A stretch of 64,000 bases of DNA from assembly GCA_963664325.2 (NCBI GenBank), contig CAXXDQ010000005.1, positions 96,001 to 160,000 of the forward strand. Direction: 5' to 3'. This DNA comes from Desulfomonilia bacterium. GTDB taxonomy: Bacteria > Desulfobacterota > Desulfomonilia > UBA1062. The position numbers and the translations under genes were made by a program. Positions within the stretch are counted from its first letter, which is position 1, and every line of letters begins with the position of its first letter. This document shows, piece by piece, positions 15,789 through 62,402 of this stretch. Under the pieces are notes generated by a model that saw nothing but the letters and a program-made list of their open reading frames with translations, ran no database searches and was not told the DNA's origin.

Positions 15789-15991
15789 ACTCATGTTTAA
15801 TTCCTGCATTGCATTATCGGGAAATTAATATACTTGATGATAGTGTCCCTGAGATATAATCAATAAACAAAGGCATAAAAAGAAGGTTAGAGTGTGAAAA
15901 TTCCAGTGTCTCGAAAAGACAATTTATGGTTAGGTCCTAGTTTTTCTACCGCATACGGCAAAATCAATAATTGGGTTTAAGAGGAGGATAC

Positions 15992-16576
15992 ATGATGTCA
16001 GATTTTGTTCCGTTAATGGAAATAGCTGATACTATTGGAGTGGATCCAACAACAATAAGACGTTTAATAAAAAAGTATGGCGATGAGCTAGGTATTGCAG
16101 TTGAAAGAGTAAAATCAAAATCACGAAATGGAAGATGGGTCGATTGCTTATCTATTGATGATCGAAACAGTTTAATTGATTTTTACGAAAGTCGAGTTAA
16201 AAATGAAGACTTATCATCAGATGAATTATCACCACGACGGTTTGGAGTTTTCTATATCATCCAGCTTATTCCTGAAGTCTTACCTAATCGTGTAAAAATT
16301 GGTTATACAGATGATCTTAAAAAAAGATTGAATGAGCATCGAACGGCTGCTCCCACTGCAAAAGTCATTGGTAGTTGGCCTTGCAAACGTTCTTGGGATC
16401 AGGCTGCAATGGATTGTATAACAAGAGAAAACTGCAAGTTAGTTATGAATGAGGTTTATGAGGGTGATGTAGAAATATTTGTTAAAAGAGCTATTAATTT
16501 CTTTTCACAAATGCCAAATTCAAATATGGCCCCTATTTTGTCAGAGCATTCACCTCTAAAAGATATACAATCATAG
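15992..16576 (+). CDS. GIY-YIG/T5orf172-like protein with N-terminal HTH
   Basis: LMEIADTIGVDPTTIRRL (HTH); GVFYIIQ...RVKIGYT..LKKRL..H; GAGGAGG RBS; strongly AT-rich. Confidence 0.75.
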   Translation: MMSDFVPLMEIADTIGVDPTTIRRLIKKYGDELGIAVERVKSKSRNGRWVDCLSIDDRNSLIDFYESRVKNEDLSSDELSPRRFGVFYIIQLIPEVLPNRVKIGYTDDLKKRLNEHRTAAPTAKVIGSWPCKRSWDQAAMDCITRENCKLVMNEVYEGDVEIFVKRAINFFSQMPNSNMAPILSEHSPLKDIQS

Positions 16577-25178: not shown

Positions 25179-25849
25179 GCTGTTTTATTCTCTGCTTTCT
25201 AACTCAGGTATTTGGAACCGGAAATTAAGGTTTATCCTGATTTAACAATATTCTAAACCCTGCAAAATGAAACTGTAAAAACTAAAAAAAGGGAGGATTA
25301 AGGCTGTGAAGAAGACAACGGTATTGGTTATAGTATTTATAATAGCGGTTTTCACAAATGCAAACGCTGAAGAATTCAAAGGCTATCTCTCTGACGCGAT
25401 ATGCGGAATCAGCGGCACTGAACCTTACGGCAACGATCTAACCTTAAACCCGGAAAGACTTACGATAGAAACCATGAGAACCCCGGCATGTGTTGCGGCA
25501 GGATATGGAATATTTATCTACAATAATGATTATAAAAAATTCATTTTCCACAAATTTGATAAAGACGGCAGCGATATGGCAAAAAAGCAAATTGTTGATG
25601 TCTATAACCAGAAAGATAATGTTGCAATAATTGTAGATGGTGAGCTTCTGGGTGATGGCTCAATCAAGGTTTCAAGGATTATGGAGGATAAAAAAATTCG
25701 CCTCAAAAATGAAATAAATAATACATGGTGGGAAAGGGAGTAGTTGAACCTGCAACAAATGGCAAATCATTAAGCGCAATATACAACCGGCGAGGGGTTT
25801 TAAAGAATCTGAGTATGAATGCATTTAACCCCCTGCCGGTTGTTGATTC
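25179..25849 (+). repeat. Tandem duplication, copy 1 (leader + gene + 3' hairpin)
   Basis: Near-identical leader ttctctgctttctaactcaggtattt.gaaccggaaattaaggtttatcctgatttaacaa and trailer ...ccccctgccggttgttgattc in both copies. Confidence 0.9.
25306..25743 (+). CDS. Secreted hypothetical protein, paralog A
   Basis: Signal peptide (ANA cleavage); GYLSD.IC...PAC.AAGYG; GGGAGG RBS. Confidence 0.85.
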   Translation: MKKTTVLVIVFIIAVFTNANAEEFKGYLSDAICGISGTEPYGNDLTLNPERLTIETMRTPACVAAGYGIFIYNNDYKKFIFHKFDKDGSDMAKKQIVDVYNQKDNVAIIVDGELLGDGSIKVSRIMEDKKIRLKNEINNTWWERE

Positions 25850-26037: not shown

Positions 26038-26710
26038 GCTGTTGTATTCTCTGCTTTCTAACTCAGGTATTTTGAACCGGAAATTAAGGTTTATCCTGAT
26101 TTAACAACTTTCTAAACCTTGCAAAATAAGATTGTAAAAATAAAAAATAAATGGAGGTTTAAGATTATGAAGAAGATTACAGTATTGGCAATAGTTTTTA
26201 TTATAGCTGCTTTCACAAATGTAAACGCGGCAGAATTCAAGGGCTATCTCTCTGATGTGATATGCGGAACCACCGGCATTGAACCTTATGGCAACGATCT
26301 CACCGTGAATCCGGGAAAAAACACTATTGAAACCATGAGAACTCCGGCATGTGCTGCGGCAGGTTATGGAATATTTATCTACAATAATAATTATAAAAGA
26401 TACATTTTTCACAAATTTGATAAAGCCGGCAGCGATATGGCAAAAAAGCAGATTGTTGACGTGTATGACCAGAATGATAATGTTGCAATAATTGTAGATG
26501 GTACTCCTTTAGATGATGGCTCGATCAAGGTTTCAAGAATTATGCTGGATAAAAGTTTCCGACTCAAAGGTGAAGGTGTTAAAAAAATGTGGGAAAATGA
26601 GTAGTTGAACCTGCAGCAAATGACAAATCATTAAGCGCCATATACAACCGGCTAGGGATTTTAAAGAATCTGAATATGAATGCATTTAACCCCCTGCCGG
26701 TTGTTGATTC
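26038..26710 (+). repeat. Tandem duplication, copy 2
   Basis: Matches copy 1 in leader, CDS and trailer. Confidence 0.9.
26167..26604 (+). CDS. Secreted hypothetical protein, paralog B
   Basis: Same length (145 aa) and highly similar to 25306..25743; GGAGG RBS. Confidence 0.85.
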   Translation: MKKITVLAIVFIIAAFTNVNAAEFKGYLSDVICGTTGIEPYGNDLTVNPGKNTIETMRTPACAAAGYGIFIYNNNYKRYIFHKFDKAGSDMAKKQIVDVYDQNDNVAIIVDGTPLDDGSIKVSRIMLDKSFRLKGEGVKKMWENE

Positions 26711-31584: not shown

Positions 31585-32364
31585 CTATTTCTTTTTAGTT
31601 TTTTTTGCCTGGGACGATTTCGAACCGGCCTTTTCATTAAGTTTGGCCTTTGCCTTCTTTGCGGCTTCAGTTTCAGGATATGCCTTTACCACCTTTTCCA
31701 GGGAAAGGCGTCCGGCCTCGTTGTCTCCGAGCTCAATCAGGGCTACGCCTTCCTTATAAAGGCAGTCAGGCACCTTCGGGCTTTTGGGGTAATTTTTTAT
31801 TACCATGTCATACCTGTCCATGGCCGCCTCGAAATTGCCTTCTGCAAAGAGGCATTCCCCTGCCCAGAAACTGGCGTTGTCTATAAGGTCGCCGTTCGGA
31901 TAGTTTGCAATATAGGCATCAAATGCCTTGAGGGCCTCCAGGTTCTTCCCGGCCCTGTATTTTTCCAGCGCCGCATCGTATTGTGATTTTGATGATGCTG
32001 CAGCTGCCTGTCCTTTCATTGTACCTTCCAGGATCAGGACCCTTGCCTCAATATCCCTGAGTTTTGTTACATCCGCTTTCGGGGAAGCCGATAGCTCCTC
32101 GATCTTGCCCTGGATTTCCCTTATCTGCGTCTGAAGGTCATTGAATTGAGACTGGATGGATGCCTGGTTTTTCAAAGACTGGGCCTTGTCGCTGCTTATG
32201 GTCCCCAGGTCCTTTTCAAGCTTGTCGTTTCTGGCTTTCAGGGCATCGAGTTCAGTCTTGAGGTTCGTAAAATCGCGCTGCGATGCACAGCCGGCAAGCA
32301 TGAAAATTGCAGCGGAAAAAAGAATTATGCCGAATACCGATAGAGTCTTATTTTTCAAACGCAT
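31585..32364 (-). CDS. cpoB: Tol-Pal associated TPR protein CpoB/YbgF
   Basis: Lipobox LAGC, coiled coil, TPRs (NASFWAGE, YPKSPKVPD, YPETEAAKKA); follows pal. Confidence 0.9.
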   Translation of the reverse strand: MRLKNKTLSVFGIILFSAAIFMLAGCASQRDFTNLKTELDALKARNDKLEKDLGTISSDKAQSLKNQASIQSQFNDLQTQIREIQGKIEELSASPKADVTKLRDIEARVLILEGTMKGQAAAASSKSQYDAALEKYRAGKNLEALKAFDAYIANYPNGDLIDNASFWAGECLFAEGNFEAAMDRYDMVIKNYPKSPKVPDCLYKEGVALIELGDNEAGRLSLEKVVKAYPETEAAKKAKAKLNEKAGSKSSQAKKTKKK

Positions 32365-32926
32365 CAAAGTGTGCCCTCCTGTTTTTTGCCCAGGCTTCTT
32401 CATTGTGACCCGAAGCCGCAGGCTTTTCCTTACCGTAGCTAATAACGGAAAGCCGGTTCCCGTCAATCCCCAGGAACATAAGGTATTTCTTGACCTCACC
32501 CGCCCTTTTTTCTCCCAGGGCCAGGTTGTACTCCGTTGTTCCGCGTTCATCGCAATGGCCTTCAACCGTGATCTTGAGCTTCGGATGTGTTTTAAGGAAT
32601 GCCGCTTTCGAGGCCAGTATCCTCTTGCCATCCTGTGACACGGTAAACTCGTCAAAATTGAAATAAATGTCTTCTTCTTCAAACTTTTTCAGACTGTCAG
32701 CCGCTGCACTCATATCCTGCCCCGAGGAAGACTGCATTACGGGCATTTCAATCGGCTGGGGGATGATCTCCGGTGAAGGTGCTGTATTGAGCGATGTGCT
32801 GTTCTGCCCCTGGTTCTGGCCATGAGGGCCGTAAACCTGCTCGATTTTTTTCTTGGCGCAAGCACAGGTAAGAATCATTACAAGCACAATAAGCAGGATG
32901 AAGGTTTTTTTCTGCCGGATCATCAT
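32348..32926 (-). CDS. pal: Peptidoglycan-associated lipoprotein
   Basis: IYFNFD, EGHCDERGTTEYNLALGEKRA, SYGKEKP, NRRA. Confidence 0.96.
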   Translation of the reverse strand: MMIRQKKTFILLIVLVMILTCACAKKKIEQVYGPHGQNQGQNSTSLNTAPSPEIIPQPIEMPVMQSSSGQDMSAAADSLKKFEEEDIYFNFDEFTVSQDGKRILASKAAFLKTHPKLKITVEGHCDERGTTEYNLALGEKRAGEVKKYLMFLGIDGNRLSVISYGKEKPAASGHNEEAWAKNRRAHFDAFEK

Positions 32927-33021
32927 ATTCTCCTTGGAAGCACTTTCCTAATGATAAAAAATTTTATCACAGCTTGAACAATACATGTACATATAAAAAC
33001 ATACCATGAAATTCTGTATTC

Positions 33022-34311
33022 TTACCTGAGGACAGGACCCCATGCCGGCTGGCTGAATCGTCCTCCCGAATTCGTTACACGAACCGGTCTGCTGCCGTTC
33101 AGGTCGGTTATGTACAGGTTTCCGTCACCGGAGGCAAAGACCAAGAGCCTGCCGTCAGGTGAGAAGGCGGGGGAAAAGTCTTCAAAATCAGTGCCGCCAA
33201 GGACCCTCAGATCGGATCCGTCCGGCTTTATCGTGGCTATATGAAAAGCCCCGTTGTCTCCGACATATGTGAAGGCAATCAGGTCGCCTTTGGGTGAAAA
33301 TCTTGGTTCTGTATTCTTTTTCCCCTGGAAGGTGATCCTGCTTTCCTTTCCCGTCGAGAGGTCTTTTATGTAAAGCTGCGGCGAACCGCCCCTGTCGGAA
33401 CAGAATACAATCCTGCCCCCGTCCGGGGAAAAACTGGCAGAGGTGTCAATGCCTGCTGAATTGATGATGCGGGTGGTTGCTTTTGTGCCGAGGTCCATCA
33501 TGTATATGGACTGGTTGCCGTCTCTTGACATGGTCAGGGCCAGCTTCGACCCCGAGGGGTGAAAGGCTGGAGCCGTGTTTAGCCCCCTGGCGCCTGACAG
33601 AAGGGTCGCATTGCCCTGCGAAAAGTTTATCAGCCATAAATCAGGGTTTCTCCTTGCATAGGATACAAAGGCTATCCTGTTGCCGTCCGGAGAAAAGGCG
33701 GGGCTCAATACGATGTCGCCGGCTTTAGCCTTTAACAGCGGGAACCCGCCGGTTCCATCCGGCCTGCATGTGTACAGCGTCCGGCCCGAACCAGTCTGCA
33801 TCACGGAAACGATCTTCGAGTTGAACATGGGGGGAAGGCCCAAAGAATCCTTGAGAAATGAGTCCACAAAATTATTGATGCTCAGATAGACGGCATCCCT
33901 GAAGGGCTTGTAATCAAGGGAGGTCACGATCTTTCCGGTTATGTCGGCGGCCTCAAGCCGCAGGTTTACGGATTTGCCGTCAGCCGGGGTGAGGGAGCCC
34001 GTAACGATGAAATCGGCACCGATCAGGCTGAAGTCTGACAGCTTCGCCTGGGATGTCGATGAGATGGAGGCCTGTGACGGATAGGTTTTCGGGTCTATAA
34101 CGTCAAACACCCCGGCAATTTCAAGGTCTTTTTTCAATATTGCCCATGCCGGGCCTGCCAGATCGGTCGGACCTGCAAAAAGGGGCATGGCCACTTTTAC
34201 CTTCTTTACGCCGCCGGCCTGGATAACGATGGTTTCATCCTGTGCCCATGCGCTGCTAAAAAGAACAAAAAAGACAATTATAAACAAACCGGACAAAGTG
34301 CAACGTTTCAT
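33022..34311 (-). CDS. tolB: TolB beta-propeller protein
   Basis: Repeated PAFSPDG (PD40) motifs, SDRGGSPQLY; operon position. Confidence 0.93.
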   Translation of the reverse strand: MKRCTLSGLFIIVFFVLFSSAWAQDETIVIQAGGVKKVKVAMPLFAGPTDLAGPAWAILKKDLEIAGVFDVIDPKTYPSQASISSTSQAKLSDFSLIGADFIVTGSLTPADGKSVNLRLEAADITGKIVTSLDYKPFRDAVYLSINNFVDSFLKDSLGLPPMFNSKIVSVMQTGSGRTLYTCRPDGTGGFPLLKAKAGDIVLSPAFSPDGNRIAFVSYARRNPDLWLINFSQGNATLLSGARGLNTAPAFHPSGSKLALTMSRDGNQSIYMMDLGTKATTRIINSAGIDTSASFSPDGGRIVFCSDRGGSPQLYIKDLSTGKESRITFQGKKNTEPRFSPKGDLIAFTYVGDNGAFHIATIKPDGSDLRVLGGTDFEDFSPAFSPDGRLLVFASGDGNLYITDLNGSRPVRVTNSGGRFSQPAWGPVLR

Positions 34312-34724
34312 TTATATCTCCTTAAATCTTCATGTGGTGTAACAAATGTAATTGTATATTCATCTTTTCCATCCGGCGGAGGAGGTAGCTTAATCTTGCT
34401 CAGGGCAGTTTCAACCGAACTGTCGTATGCTTTATTGCCGGAGGAAATAATCATTTTTTTACTGATGATTTCTCCTGTCTTGGAAATTTTTATAATATAT
34501 GTAACTTTGAGGTCAGGGTTAATATGCTGATCTTGTGGTAGTTGCCACACCTGTTTGAGTCTTAGCATTACGTTCCCGGCCCACTCCTCGTTTTTTGTAG
34601 CAGTATGCGTTATCGGTTCGGAGGAGATATCGGAAGTAATTTTCTTTTTCCCAGCGCATGCAGAGCATAACAAAATAATTATAAACATAACAAATATAAT
34701 TCGTTTAATATTAATCATTCTCAA
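34308..34724 (-). CDS. Lipoprotein carrying a TolA/TonB C-terminal domain (TolA paralog)
   Basis: IILLCSAC-AGKKKI signal; QVWQLP...SSGNKAYDSSVETAL..IKLPPPP closely matches the TolA C-terminus. Confidence 0.8.
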   Translation of the reverse strand: MRMINIKRIIFVMFIIILLCSACAGKKKITSDISSEPITHTATKNEEWAGNVMLRLKQVWQLPQDQHINPDLKVTYIIKISKTGEIISKKMIISSGNKAYDSSVETALSKIKLPPPPDGKDEYTITFVTPHEDLRRYK

Positions 34725-35371
34725 TTCCCATAAGGTGGAACGAATGTTAGTGACCCTATATATTCCCCTCCGGGCGGCGGTGGTAGCTTGATCCTGCTCA
34801 ATGCAATTTCAACTGAGCGGTCGTAAGGCCTGTTGCCCGAAGAGACCACCAGTTTCTTGCTTATTATATCCCCTGATCTCGAAATCCTGATATCGTAGGT
34901 CGCCTTCAGATCCGGGCTGATTGTTACCCCTTCCGGTATCTGCCATACCTGCCGGAATCTTGCTATTACAATTCCTGCCCATGCCTGATTCCTTGCAACC
35001 TCACCGTATCCGCTTTCACCTGAAGTTTCCACGTTTCCCTGACGGTTTTGCCGGCCCTGCTGCGGAGAGGGTGAAGGCCTGGCCGGCTCCGAATCCAGAT
35101 CGGGTTCCGGCAATCTGGAGAGGTTTTCATTGGCCGGTACGTCTTTTGAAATCTCCCCGAAGTCCCTGATTTTCGGTACAGGCGAAGGAACGGCAAAATT
35201 CTTGAAACTTCCACCTGAAACAGAGGCACCAGGGGGTCCGGGAACAATATCGACCTCATACACGACCGGAACCGCTTTTGCCTTTGAGGAGAAATCCGGC
35301 AGTATAACCCCTGCAAAAAATCCTATATGCAGTAAAAGGGATATAGCTATAAAAACATGAAACCTTCTCAT
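34721..35371 (-). CDS. tolA: TolA-like energy transducer
   Basis: TM anchor with SLLLH, Pro-rich linker, SSGNRPYDRSV C-terminal domain. Confidence 0.85.
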   Translation of the reverse strand: MRRFHVFIAISLLLHIGFFAGVILPDFSSKAKAVPVVYEVDIVPGPPGASVSGGSFKNFAVPSPVPKIRDFGEISKDVPANENLSRLPEPDLDSEPARPSPSPQQGRQNRQGNVETSGESGYGEVARNQAWAGIVIARFRQVWQIPEGVTISPDLKATYDIRISRSGDIISKKLVVSSGNRPYDRSVEIALSRIKLPPPPGGEYIGSLTFVPPYGN

Positions 35372-35373
35372 CC

Positions 35374-35784
35374 TTACCTGTTCAAGGGTGGTTGAGTGAC
35401 AAGCCCCAGCTTCGTAAGACCCGAGCCCCTGATCAGGGCCATGACTTCCACGACATATCCATACGGCACCCCTTTGTCGGCCTGGAGGAATACGTTTTCA
35501 ATTCCCCTCTGCTGGACAATCTGCTCAAGCAGCGGGGTCAGCCTGGCTATTTCTATAGTAGAACCGTTGATATCAATTTTTTTATCCTTGCTTATGGTTA
35601 CAATTATATCCTGGGACTGGCTTGGGAGCGCTTTTGATTCCACCTCTGGGAGGTTTACATTCATACCTTCCTTCATCATGGGAGCGGAAACCATGAATAT
35701 TATGAGAAGCACCAGTATTACATCGACCAGGGGTGTTACGTTAATGCCCGATACGATTTTGCCTCTATTGTTTCCTGTCTCCAT
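35374..35784 (-). CDS. tolR: TolR/ExbD
   Basis: INVTPLVDVILVLLIIFMV.AP, ADKGVPYG. Confidence 0.93.
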   Translation of the reverse strand: METGNNRGKIVSGINVTPLVDVILVLLIIFMVSAPMMKEGMNVNLPEVESKALPSQSQDIIVTISKDKKIDINGSTIEIARLTPLLEQIVQQRGIENVFLQADKGVPYGYVVEVMALIRGSGLTKLGLVTQPPLNR

Positions 35785-36481
35785 ACAGGCTCCTCCTGGT
35801 CCAGTTCATGTACTCAATCATGAATTGATCCATCTGTCGGTATATGTGATCCATGACACCGGTGAAATAGTTATAAAAAAGGACCGCCGGTATTGCCACA
35901 AAAAGTCCTGCCGCCGTTGCAACAAGCGCTTCGGAAATGCCCGGTGCTACCGTTGCCAGATTTGCAGAACCCATAAGGCCTATTTCCCTGAACGAATCCA
36001 TTATTCCCCAGACGGTACCGAACAGGCCTATAAAAGGGGATGCATTGCTGATGCTGGCAAGAAATCCGAGCCCCCTGCCCAGGGACATGGACTCGTTTGC
36101 GGAAATGCTCTTGATCTTGCCCTCGATATTTTCCAGCAAGGCGGGTGAAATCGAATTGCTGGTGTCCGTTATCCTGTCAAACTCAAGCTGGGCGGCATTA
36201 TACAGTCTTGCGACGGGGGAATCACCGGCCTGCCTGACCCGTTCGGATATCTTTGACTGCAAGCCGCCTTGTCCCAGCGCGTTAAGGATAACTTCTCCGC
36301 TCTTCCTGGCCTTTTTAAACACTATCCATTTCTGGATGATGATCGCCCAGGAAATTACTGAAAAAACCAGCAGGCACGTAAGAACAATCTTTACAATGGG
36401 GTCAGAATCAATGACCATGGCCCCGATATCGCCCCTGAACTGGCCCGGAGCCGCAAACGCCGTCGCAGCCAGCATTAGCAT
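35765..36481 (-). CDS. tolQ: TolQ/ExbB
   Basis: SPFIGLFGTVWGIM, VAPGISEALVATAAGL. Confidence 0.95.
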   Translation of the reverse strand: MLMLAATAFAAPGQFRGDIGAMVIDSDPIVKIVLTCLLVFSVISWAIIIQKWIVFKKARKSGEVILNALGQGGLQSKISERVRQAGDSPVARLYNAAQLEFDRITDTSNSISPALLENIEGKIKSISANESMSLGRGLGFLASISNASPFIGLFGTVWGIMDSFREIGLMGSANLATVAPGISEALVATAAGLFVAIPAVLFYNYFTGVMDHIYRQMDQFMIEYMNWTRRSLYGDRKQ

Positions 36482-36860
36482 GAGTACCTCCCGTTAAAAA
36501 ATTTATTTAAGGTAGTCTTTAGACACCTAAGTCTACATATATATTTTAAAGAGTCGTTTGTTCAAGTGCAAACCTCAAACCGTAAAGTTGATGGCATTCG
36601 GGGTTGCATTCTTTATATGTCCGCCGGGACCGGCGGTAATCATACCCCTCGGGTGTCGGCGCAAGGAGTTTGAATAATTCTTCAGAATTCACAATCCATT
36701 TGTACTCCATCCCTTTTTTAATTACCAGATGGAAAATCAAATTAATGGCACTTTTTGACATTTTGTTACTATTATATAACTACATGAATAAATAAAATAA
36801 TTTTAGACCTAAAGTATTATATTATTATTGACCGATAATAATGATTGTAATATAGGCAAA

Positions 36861-61758: not shown

Positions 61759-61835
61759 ACATTAAATATAAGGAAGGTAAAGCATGCCCAAGACAATAAA
61801 TACCAGGCTGAAACGACCGGGCATGGAGAACGTTT

Positions 61836-62402
61836 ATGAATGCAAAGTCCAAATTGAAAAAGAGTGAATTAATTCCATCACAGACTGACAGTTTGGATGG
61901 GAAAAAATCAGGTCTGAATAAACGCGGACTCAAACTCATACATGGATCTAAAAAACAACAGGTCAAAGTAATTATAGGCTGCAGTGATGAAGATGGTATT
62001 AGCGAATATTTGTCTGATCTTGCAAATGAGGCATCTGACAACAAATACGATCTGAGATTTTTCATATCTTATTACAGTGATGAGATACTGGAACTGGCCG
62101 ACAGGGAAGCGATCGATATTTTCATTCTGATTCTGAACAATATAGATTGCTTTGACTATTCAATCCGGGAGCGTATGGAGAATTCCCTGGAGCTTATCAC
62201 TCAGATCAAATCGACATATGAAAGGCCTGTCATTGCATTATCCGGCTGGACAGAAGATTTCTCTCAAATAGAGCGGGTTGAAATGATTGCTGATTTCTTC
62301 TTTCCTCTTCCATTTGAACCGCAAGATTTTGTCGAGGCCCTCGAAGAGTCTTTTGAAATGCTTTATGTCTCAAAGGAAGCATATCTGAAGAGACTTAAAT
62401 GA
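61836..62402 (+). CDS. Degenerate receiver-like (CheY fold) protein
   Basis: LELITQIK...RPVIALSG...ADFFFPLPF; phospho-Asp and Lys absent. Confidence 0.6.
   Translation: MNAKSKLKKSELIPSQTDSLDGKKSGLNKRGLKLIHGSKKQQVKVIIGCSDEDGISEYLSDLANEASDNKYDLRFFISYYSDEILELADREAIDIFILILNNIDCFDYSIRERMENSLELITQIKSTYERPVIALSGWTEDFSQIERVEMIADFFFPLPFEPQDFVEALEESFEMLYVSKEAYLKRLK

Follow-up and report, generated by a model that had tools for sequence, protein, structure and literature searches.

Domain III of TolA (TolAIII) binds TolB at its N-terminal end by β-strand augmentation on the domain's strand β3 in Escherichia coli and Pseudomonas aeruginosa, with a dissociation constant of ~40-200 µM, and it has been put forward that modulating the interactions of TolB could regulate vesicle formation (both as described in PMC7391070). 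TolAIII exported to the periplasm has also served as a tool, namely to make E. coli release periplasmic protein (as described in PMC6195910). Here, a locus is presented in which a copy of this domain appears to have become a gene of its own. The gene, given the working name X, lies between tolA and tolB on the minus strand of a stretch of 64,000 nucleotides (nt) from a Desulfomonilia bacterium (assembly GCA_963664325.2, contig CAXXDQ010000005.1, positions 96,001 to 160,000 of the forward strand). This whole stretch is called the window throughout, and the genome it belongs to is referred to as G000. I consider it very likely that X is an accessory tol-pal gene which places a TolAIII copy behind a signal peptide; a role in tuning TolB is put forward far more tentatively.

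Results

X (34308..34718, minus strand) encodes 136 residues, and residues 44-131 (34326..34589) form a TolAIII/TonB_2 domain (PF13103, E 3.4e-17). The match to the PF13103 profile reached 62.8 bits at a cut-off of 22, spanning residues 46-127 of X and positions 2-83 of the 85 in the profile, and the TolA of the same operon matched this profile with 53.5 bits (same cut-off). X also passed the NCBIfam model tonB_Cterm (29.7 bits, cut-off 27.1), and scanning it against Pfam gave PF13103 and a weak PF03544 match, and no match to the OmpA-like domain PF00691. Aligned by BLASTP, X from residue 32 to its end shared 53/102 identities (52%, E 1e-38) with the last 102 residues of the adjacent TolA, which bears out the claim of the preliminary description of this DNA, made from the letters of the window, that the two C-termini are clear paralogs.

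The fold prediction pointed to the same domain. An AlphaFold2 model of X, built on a 27-row alignment, had a mean predicted local distance difference test (pLDDT) score of 79, with 10-residue blocks of 86-97 over residues 41-130, and consisted of helices at 4-16 (the signal), 36-57 and 96-108 and strands at 71-78, 84-91 and 120-126. When this model was searched against the PDB using Foldseek, the top four matches were the TolAIII entries 6s3w (a complex of TolAIII with a TolB peptide), 3qdr, 2x9a and 1lr0 (E 4e-5 to 3e-4), followed by the C-terminal domains of HasB and TonB. A profile search of PDB sequences with X gave no match at E ≤ 1.

X is a paralog of TolA domain III inside the tol-pal operon, and not TolA proper. 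It scored 29.1 bits against the equivalog model for full-length TolA (TIGR02794, tolA_full), below the cut-off of 59.45, and the TolA of the operon, at 43.6 bits, also stayed below it. The hydrophobic run near the N-terminus of X, IIFVMFIIILL, contains neither Ser nor His, and the S-x3-H motif of the motor-coupling helix, present in TolA as SLLLH, is absent, as had been claimed beforehand. The periplasm-spanning domain II is missing as well, and a linker of 22 residues alone (residues 22-43, AGKKKITSDISSEPITHTATKN, 34590..34655) precedes the domain. The alignment columns of this linker are variable, and in the model residues 21-34 are disordered (pLDDT <50), while 36-43 make up the start of helix 36-57.

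Behind the domain, X ends in a short C-terminal tail, LRRYK plus the stop codon (34308..34325), which holds the start signals of the next gene: the tolB Shine-Dalgarno sequence AGGAG (34318-34322) falls within the final codons of X, and the stop of X and the ATG of tolB overlap in ATGA (34308-34311). With these two elements in its 3' end, X is built into the operon, and going by this arrangement it is probably translationally coupled to tolB. At the other end, the ATG at 34718 lies 2 nt past the tolA stop; the spacing is identical in the ortholog of a second species of the genus (G002), the tolA-X junction AATTGA[AG]AATG is identical in both genomes, and the protein collection carries X in its 136-residue form. 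The equal spacing and the 136-residue form are the reasons for taking this ATG as the start. An alternative TTG at 34724 would give 138 residues (34308..34724), which is how the gene was initially described, with overlaps of 4 nt on both sides. The gene and its ATGA overlap with tolB stand, but the overlap with tolA arises with the TTG start alone. Since the same junction occurs in an independent genome, an assembly artefact was excluded. Promoters and terminators predicted by a simple scan were no more numerous than those in shuffled sequence, and no RNA run was listed among the sequencing runs covering 33000-36500; four runs span the full stretch, all from one sample and one study.

The initial observation that X is more AT-rich than its neighbours was confirmed, with a GC content of 0.38-0.39 across X as opposed to 0.50-0.57 in tolB and tolA. 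The gene itself has a GC content of 0.365 and a GC content at third codon positions (GC3) of 0.35, compared with a GC3 of 0.48 in tolA and 0.63 in tolB, and it is one of five low-GC frames among the 55 long frames of the window (mean GC3 0.56, sd 0.09). The idea that the low GC stems from recent horizontal transfer found no support: X nests in the TolA of its own genus, its synonymous divergence (dS) matches that of the flanking genes, and both orthologs are AT-rich (0.365 in G000, 0.383 in G002).

The first 20 residues (34659..34718) form a signal peptide with a positively charged n-region (K5, R6), the 11-residue hydrophobic run given above and then C-S-A. This is followed by Cys21 (34656..34658), the putative lipidated +1 Cys, which is invariant in the X family, and by Ala at +2. 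In an alignment of six X homologs, C21 and A22 were the sole invariant columns within the first 30 residues; the aligned Cys is also found in the G002 copy, where Thr follows it at +2, and in the more distant homolog P0007, which keeps the Ala. In 8/8 members of the family, either Ala or Ser occupies position -1. Judged by its signal, X is likely to be a lipoprotein.

Lipobox patterns (PROSITE PS51257-type, DOLOP-type and [LVI][ASTVI][GAS]C) were applied to the eight family members. The PROSITE-type core was found in three of them (P0002, P0004 and P0007) and a relaxed form in five. Some features speak against lipidation: the box of the window copy, L-C-S-A-C, fails both strict patterns because its -3 position is a Cys, Pro occupies -2 in three homologs, and a [AS]-C-[AT] site would be cut by signal peptidase I to leave a soluble periplasmic protein. 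Such a free periplasmic TolAIII would be in line with the failure of the strict patterns in 5/8 members, including the window copy, and with A-C-A and S-C-A, which fit the -3/-1 rule of signal peptidase I. However, the Cys would then fall at the unconstrained position -2, and yet it never changes in a signal that is otherwise variable; moreover, the aligned Cys lies in a canonical lipobox in P0004 and P0007, and the Pal encoded in this genome has a comparably unusual L-T-C-A-C. I regard cleavage to a soluble form as rather improbable. The preliminary description had spoken of a Pal-like lipoprotein signal, and what remains of this is a lipoprotein-like signal with an invariant Cys21, behind a lipobox that is non-canonical in the window species. 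The resemblance between the N-termini of X and Pal (CA-KKKI) turned out not to be meaningful. The other homologs read CAGEKN, CAGKNQ, CAGEKQ, CAGKKQ or CAAEKQ from the Cys onwards, and as the KKKI likeness is generic and confined to the window species, a shared origin of the X and Pal signals was rejected.

When 29 domain sequences were placed in a tree by maximum likelihood (104 columns), the seven X rows came out as one clade (99/98). This clade grouped with the genus TolA (92/96), and next to them stood the TolA from another genome, G014 (95/89). Read from this tree, X is a single old partial tandem duplicate of the 3' part of tolA, that is, of domain III, which arose near the base of the genus. 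The age of the duplication is apparent from the synonymous difference between X and the C-terminal domain of TolA (TolA-C), which is saturated (pS 0.71-0.81).

Selection was estimated with the Nei-Gojobori method for one species pair, G000 and G002, at a dS near saturation. The ratio of non-synonymous to synonymous divergence (dN/dS) was 0.28 for the whole of X and 0.21 for its domain, at a dS of 0.88-1.0 versus 1.04-1.09 for tolA and tolB, and TolA-C gave a ratio of 0.105. One may ask whether X is a functionless tandem duplicate on its way to being lost, which would suit its low GC, its non-canonical lipobox and its loss from two congeners (G001 and G003, see below). Against this, the frame is intact in eight distinct homologs, conservation extends to the Cys, the SSGN..D.S core and the spacing of the start, and a dN/dS of 0.21-0.28 has been kept up over a dS of ~0.9-1.0, over which a neutral open reading frame (ORF) would not stay open. 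A neutral leftover is accordingly given very little credence, and by these measures X is inherited vertically under purifying selection.

X is dispensable and lineage-restricted. The window's own genome contains X, TolA and one distant match, and across the genomes of 41 relatives a full-length match to X was obtained in G000 and G002 only (59% identity, residues 1-132). G001 and G003, which belong to the same genus, have TolA only, and their contiguous loci run from tolA directly into tolB, so 2/4 species of the genus have X at this locus. Where it is present, the gene is not decaying. No match at E ≤ 1e-14 was found in 400 other genomes sampled evenly across the phylum. A search of 5.8 billion protein clusters yielded six proteins, the window's own included, and a profile search of 1.84 billion representatives yielded two (P0002 and P0007) at E ≤ 1e-30, out of 269 at E ≤ 1e-3. 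Scanning metagenome contigs with X and with P0006 revealed no relative, and scanning genome contigs with X returned the G002 record as the sole match. The proteins P0007 and P0014, when searched against the genomes of the class, matched TolA C-domains plus the X of G000 and G002 only.

The X-bearing G000 is the outlier of the genus, with a TolB identity of 83-85% to the other three members, which share 89-94% among themselves, and X is for this reason older than the radiation of the genus and was lost in G001 and G003. In these two species, the last 12 nt of tolA read Y-S-N-TAA, which matches the end of the G002 X at 11/12 positions and the end of the G002 tolA (Y-G-N-TGA) at 9/12. This suggests, on the strength of 3-4 diagnostic bases, that X was deleted by recombination between the paralogous 3' ends. 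The gene trees of the locus were also found to conflict: the TolA C-domain groups G001 with G003 (dS 0.31-0.34), the species without X, while tolB and tolR group G001 with G002. This pattern suggests recombination between species at the tolR-tolA-tolB locus, and X may therefore have been lost either through one deletion that spread by recombination or through two separate deletions.

The operon around X comprises, in order on the minus strand, tolQ, tolR, tolA, X, tolB, pal and cpoB, and is a complete tol-pal set. tolQ (35765-36481, PF01618) and tolR (35374-35784, PF02472) are followed by tolA (34721..35371), whose product of 216 residues begins with the SLLLH-bearing helix, continues with a part rich in Pro, Ser and Gly and ends in a TonB_2 domain (residues 125-216, 34724-34999). 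TolA is short in this genus: it ends 5 residues past strand β3 and does not have the C-terminal helix that is displaced by TolB in P. aeruginosa TolAIII. After the PPPP motif, X and the genus TolA have in common a short loop not seen in the other genera, and the genus is without a stretch of 4-6 loop residues that other genera of the family possess there. tolB (33022..34311) encodes 429 residues with PF04052 and PD40 and scored 306 bits against TIGR02800, under the cut-off of 343. In the TolB proteins of E. coli and P. aeruginosa, the N-terminal strand that binds TolA occupies the position taken here by the predicted mature N-terminus, QDETIVIQAGGVKK (34201-34242). pal (32348..32926, 192 residues) has the lipobox L-T-C-A-C and the OmpA domain PF00691, and reached 138.8 bits against TIGR02802 (cut-off 125.35). 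The start of cpoB/ybgF (31585..32364, 259 residues from MRLKNK) overlaps the end of pal by 17 nt, and its product contains tetratricopeptide repeats and a canonical L-A-G-C lipobox. This box fits the account in PMC12204202, by which most non-proteobacterial CpoB proteins are lipoproteins.

Elsewhere in the window, all on the plus strand, 25306-25743 and 26119-26604 encode small secreted proteins (145 and 161 residues) that are paralogs of each other, with a signal ending in NA-NA, several Cys and a GC of 0.36-0.38; the first of them had no Pfam match. A 201-residue ORF at 15971-16576 has a GC of 0.35 and, at 0.22, the lowest GC3 in the window, with weak matches to T5orf172/MUG113 (GIY-YIG-like) and to helix-turn-helix domains, and looks like a foreign or mobile gene. 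A low-GC frame of 196 residues at 61812-62399 (GC 0.39) had no Pfam match and may be no gene.

Discussion

Tol-Pal has been treated as a fixed set of parts, and X adds to it a TolA tip that is retained by selection and has no motor. The explanation that I favour starts from a copy of TolAIII that gained a lipoprotein-type signal peptide. X would be exported and lipid-anchored at Cys21, and with Ala at +2 it would probably reside in the outer membrane, assuming that the E. coli sorting rule holds here. The short linker would then hold a TolAIII domain, free of any link to the TolQR motor, near the outer membrane, where it would bind the same kind of ligand as TolAIII, i.e., the N-terminal strand of TolB. 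By competing without exerting force, or by serving as a holding site, X could tune how much TolB-Pal is engaged by the TolA motor, with effects on Pal mobilisation and on outer-membrane tightness or vesiculation.

A TolB-type ligand is proposed because the core and the β3 edge strand for strand augmentation have been kept. Among the 33 domain positions at which neither X nor the genus TolA varies, 30 carry the same residue in both, and β3 (120-126) has no fixed difference. The mature start of TolB, QDETIVIQAGG, may resemble the TolA box of E. coli. A complex prediction of X 21-136 with the mature N-terminal domain of TolB, run without its controls, gave no answer (score 0.01 against a mark of 0.32) and speaks neither for nor against binding. 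The TolB-tuning mechanism, as read from sequence, is offered as a possibility of somewhat doubtful standing, and the explanation as a whole, identity and TolB tuning taken together, comes close to but falls short of what I would call probable. A bolder version, in which X is a natural brake or buffer that holds the TolB N-terminus at the outer membrane and thereby sets how fast Pal is mobilised and vesicles are released, and in which short proteins with a lipoprotein-like signal and TonB_2 form a so far unrecognised class of force-less competitors regulating Tol and Ton systems, is speculative and on balance unlikely.

Several observations weigh against the favoured explanation. At non-synonymous sites, the rate of change in X is roughly double that of TolA-C (dN 0.206 versus 0.116), and the estimate of selection comes from a single species pair with a dS near saturation. 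Fixed changes in X replace R by K77, D by E83 and P by A97, and that Pro is present in 14/16 TolA proteins of other genera, so the ligand may have changed. The absence of X from the locus in G001 and G003 indicates that its function is not needed for Tol-Pal, and adjacent PF13103 pairs occur in just 3/52 genomes of the family (G000, G002 and G004). Short proteins with a signal and TonB_2 are not rare in other lineages, and the architecture of X is not unique. Both TolB binding and the expression of X are, lastly, inferences.

The fixed changes would also suit an X that has kept its fold but binds a ligand other than TolB, such as CpoB, a peptidoglycan enzyme or the TonB-box-like strand of an outer-membrane protein. 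Besides K77, E83 and A97, M89 is fixed in X, and X and TolA have non-overlapping residue sets at 64-65, 72, 80 and 104; the doubled dN agrees with this, as do the short TonB_2-only proteins found in many lineages. TolA is itself an interaction hub that also binds CpoB, as described in PMC7391070. The changes in X are conservative, however, its position between tolA and tolB and its coupling to tolB point to the Tol-Pal cycle, and no candidate for another partner was identified, and I consider a new partner rather unlikely.

A different role for an exported TolAIII copy would be that of a decoy or immunity factor, which soaks up the translocation domains of bacteriocins or g3p-like phage proteins and so protects the cell. 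Phage g3p and colicins A and N dock on TolAIII, as described in PMC7391070 and PMC4339652. X is also accessory and patchy (2/4 species), AT-rich like the four other low-GC ORFs among the 55, and faster evolving than TolA-C. On the other hand, a dN/dS of 0.2-0.3, averaged over the whole gene for one species pair, does not look like an arms race, X has no neighbouring genes for mobile elements, bacteriocins or immunity, and it sits in a core operon, coupled to tolB. A periplasmic decoy would, moreover, meet the invader only after it has crossed the outer membrane, and I know of no TolA-dependent phage or bacteriocin for this uncultured lineage, which also counts against a decoy. A literature search on TolA decoys returned nothing relevant. 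Of the roles that X might have, that of a decoy is judged unlikely, a little more so than that of a new partner.

X is narrow in its distribution and dispensable, its host is uncultured, and the role in TolB tuning is a hypothesis. Nevertheless, I know of no endogenous protein that competes with TolA for TolB, and a selected, motor-less TolA tip encoded in the operon would offer a ready natural test of the idea that modulation of TolB can regulate vesicles. X also illustrates how a new envelope component may arise by partial duplication and the gain of an export signal, and how it may be removed again by recombination between paralogs. As to its novelty, the literature search found no paper on a stand-alone TolAIII gene in tol-pal or on a TolA-domain lipoprotein, and no such gene is mentioned in passages of the 2025 survey of tol-pal operons (PMC12204202). 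The claim that X is a candidate for an undescribed Tol-Pal component can be upheld in this sense, with the qualification that short proteins with a lipobox-like signal and TonB_2 recur elsewhere and that three X homologs are named 'TonB family protein' in one source.

Compared with known systems, X most resembles TolA domain III of E. coli, P. aeruginosa and V. cholerae (6s3w, 3qdr, 2x9a, 1lr0 and 4g7x; Foldseek E 4e-5 to 6e-4, target-normalised template modelling (TM) scores of 0.53-0.77), although its sequence identity to these solved structures is just 13-20%. Like TolAIII it matches PF13103, and it derives from the TolA of its own operon. Unlike TolA, it is a separate gene with a cleavable signal and an invariant Cys, and as it has no membrane helix, no S-x3-H and no domain II, TolQR cannot drive it. 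In being an exported TolAIII without motor-coupled parts, X parallels the recombinant periplasmic TolAIII of E. coli, which is made as a signal-sequence fusion (as described in PMC6195910). It differs from the latter in being natural, encoded in an operon, conserved under selection and probably lipid-anchored. The periplasmic TolAIII work underlying the recombinant use is reportedly that of Levengood-Freyermuth 1993 and Wan & Baneyx 1998.

The nearest parallel in terms of position is an ORF that G004, from another genus within the family, has between its tolA and tolB (L023 2560-2952, minus strand, 130 residues), with a signal ending in G-G-A-C and a TonB_2 match of 22.5 bits at a cut-off of 22. 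In contrast to X it is very divergent, with 34% identity to its own TolA-C over 76 residues, 39% to X over 49 residues and a tree branch of 3.2, and its origin may be either shared with X or independent.

In terms of architecture, the ESM Atlas contains clusters of proteins of 119-166 residues named TolA, TolA family protein or TonB C-terminal domain-containing protein, which like X combine a signal, often with a lipobox-like Cys, with one TonB_2 domain. From the 150 listed representatives of the profile search, 20 were hand-picked for short length or N-terminal coverage, and the lipobox patterns were run on 17 of these, including P0007 and leaving out P0020, P0022 and P0062. Among the 15 run representatives outside the X clade, the strict core was found in 5/15 and the relaxed form in 10/15. 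P0063 and P0071 have a Cys-containing signal and two matched stretches each in the representative search, with two TonB_2 stretches in Pfam for P0063, and P0043 and P0143 have three matched stretches behind an ordinary signal, with three TonB_2 stretches in Pfam for P0043. What sets X apart from the automatically named clusters, for which no description of a function was found, is that it makes up a narrow clade of its own within the TolA of its genus.

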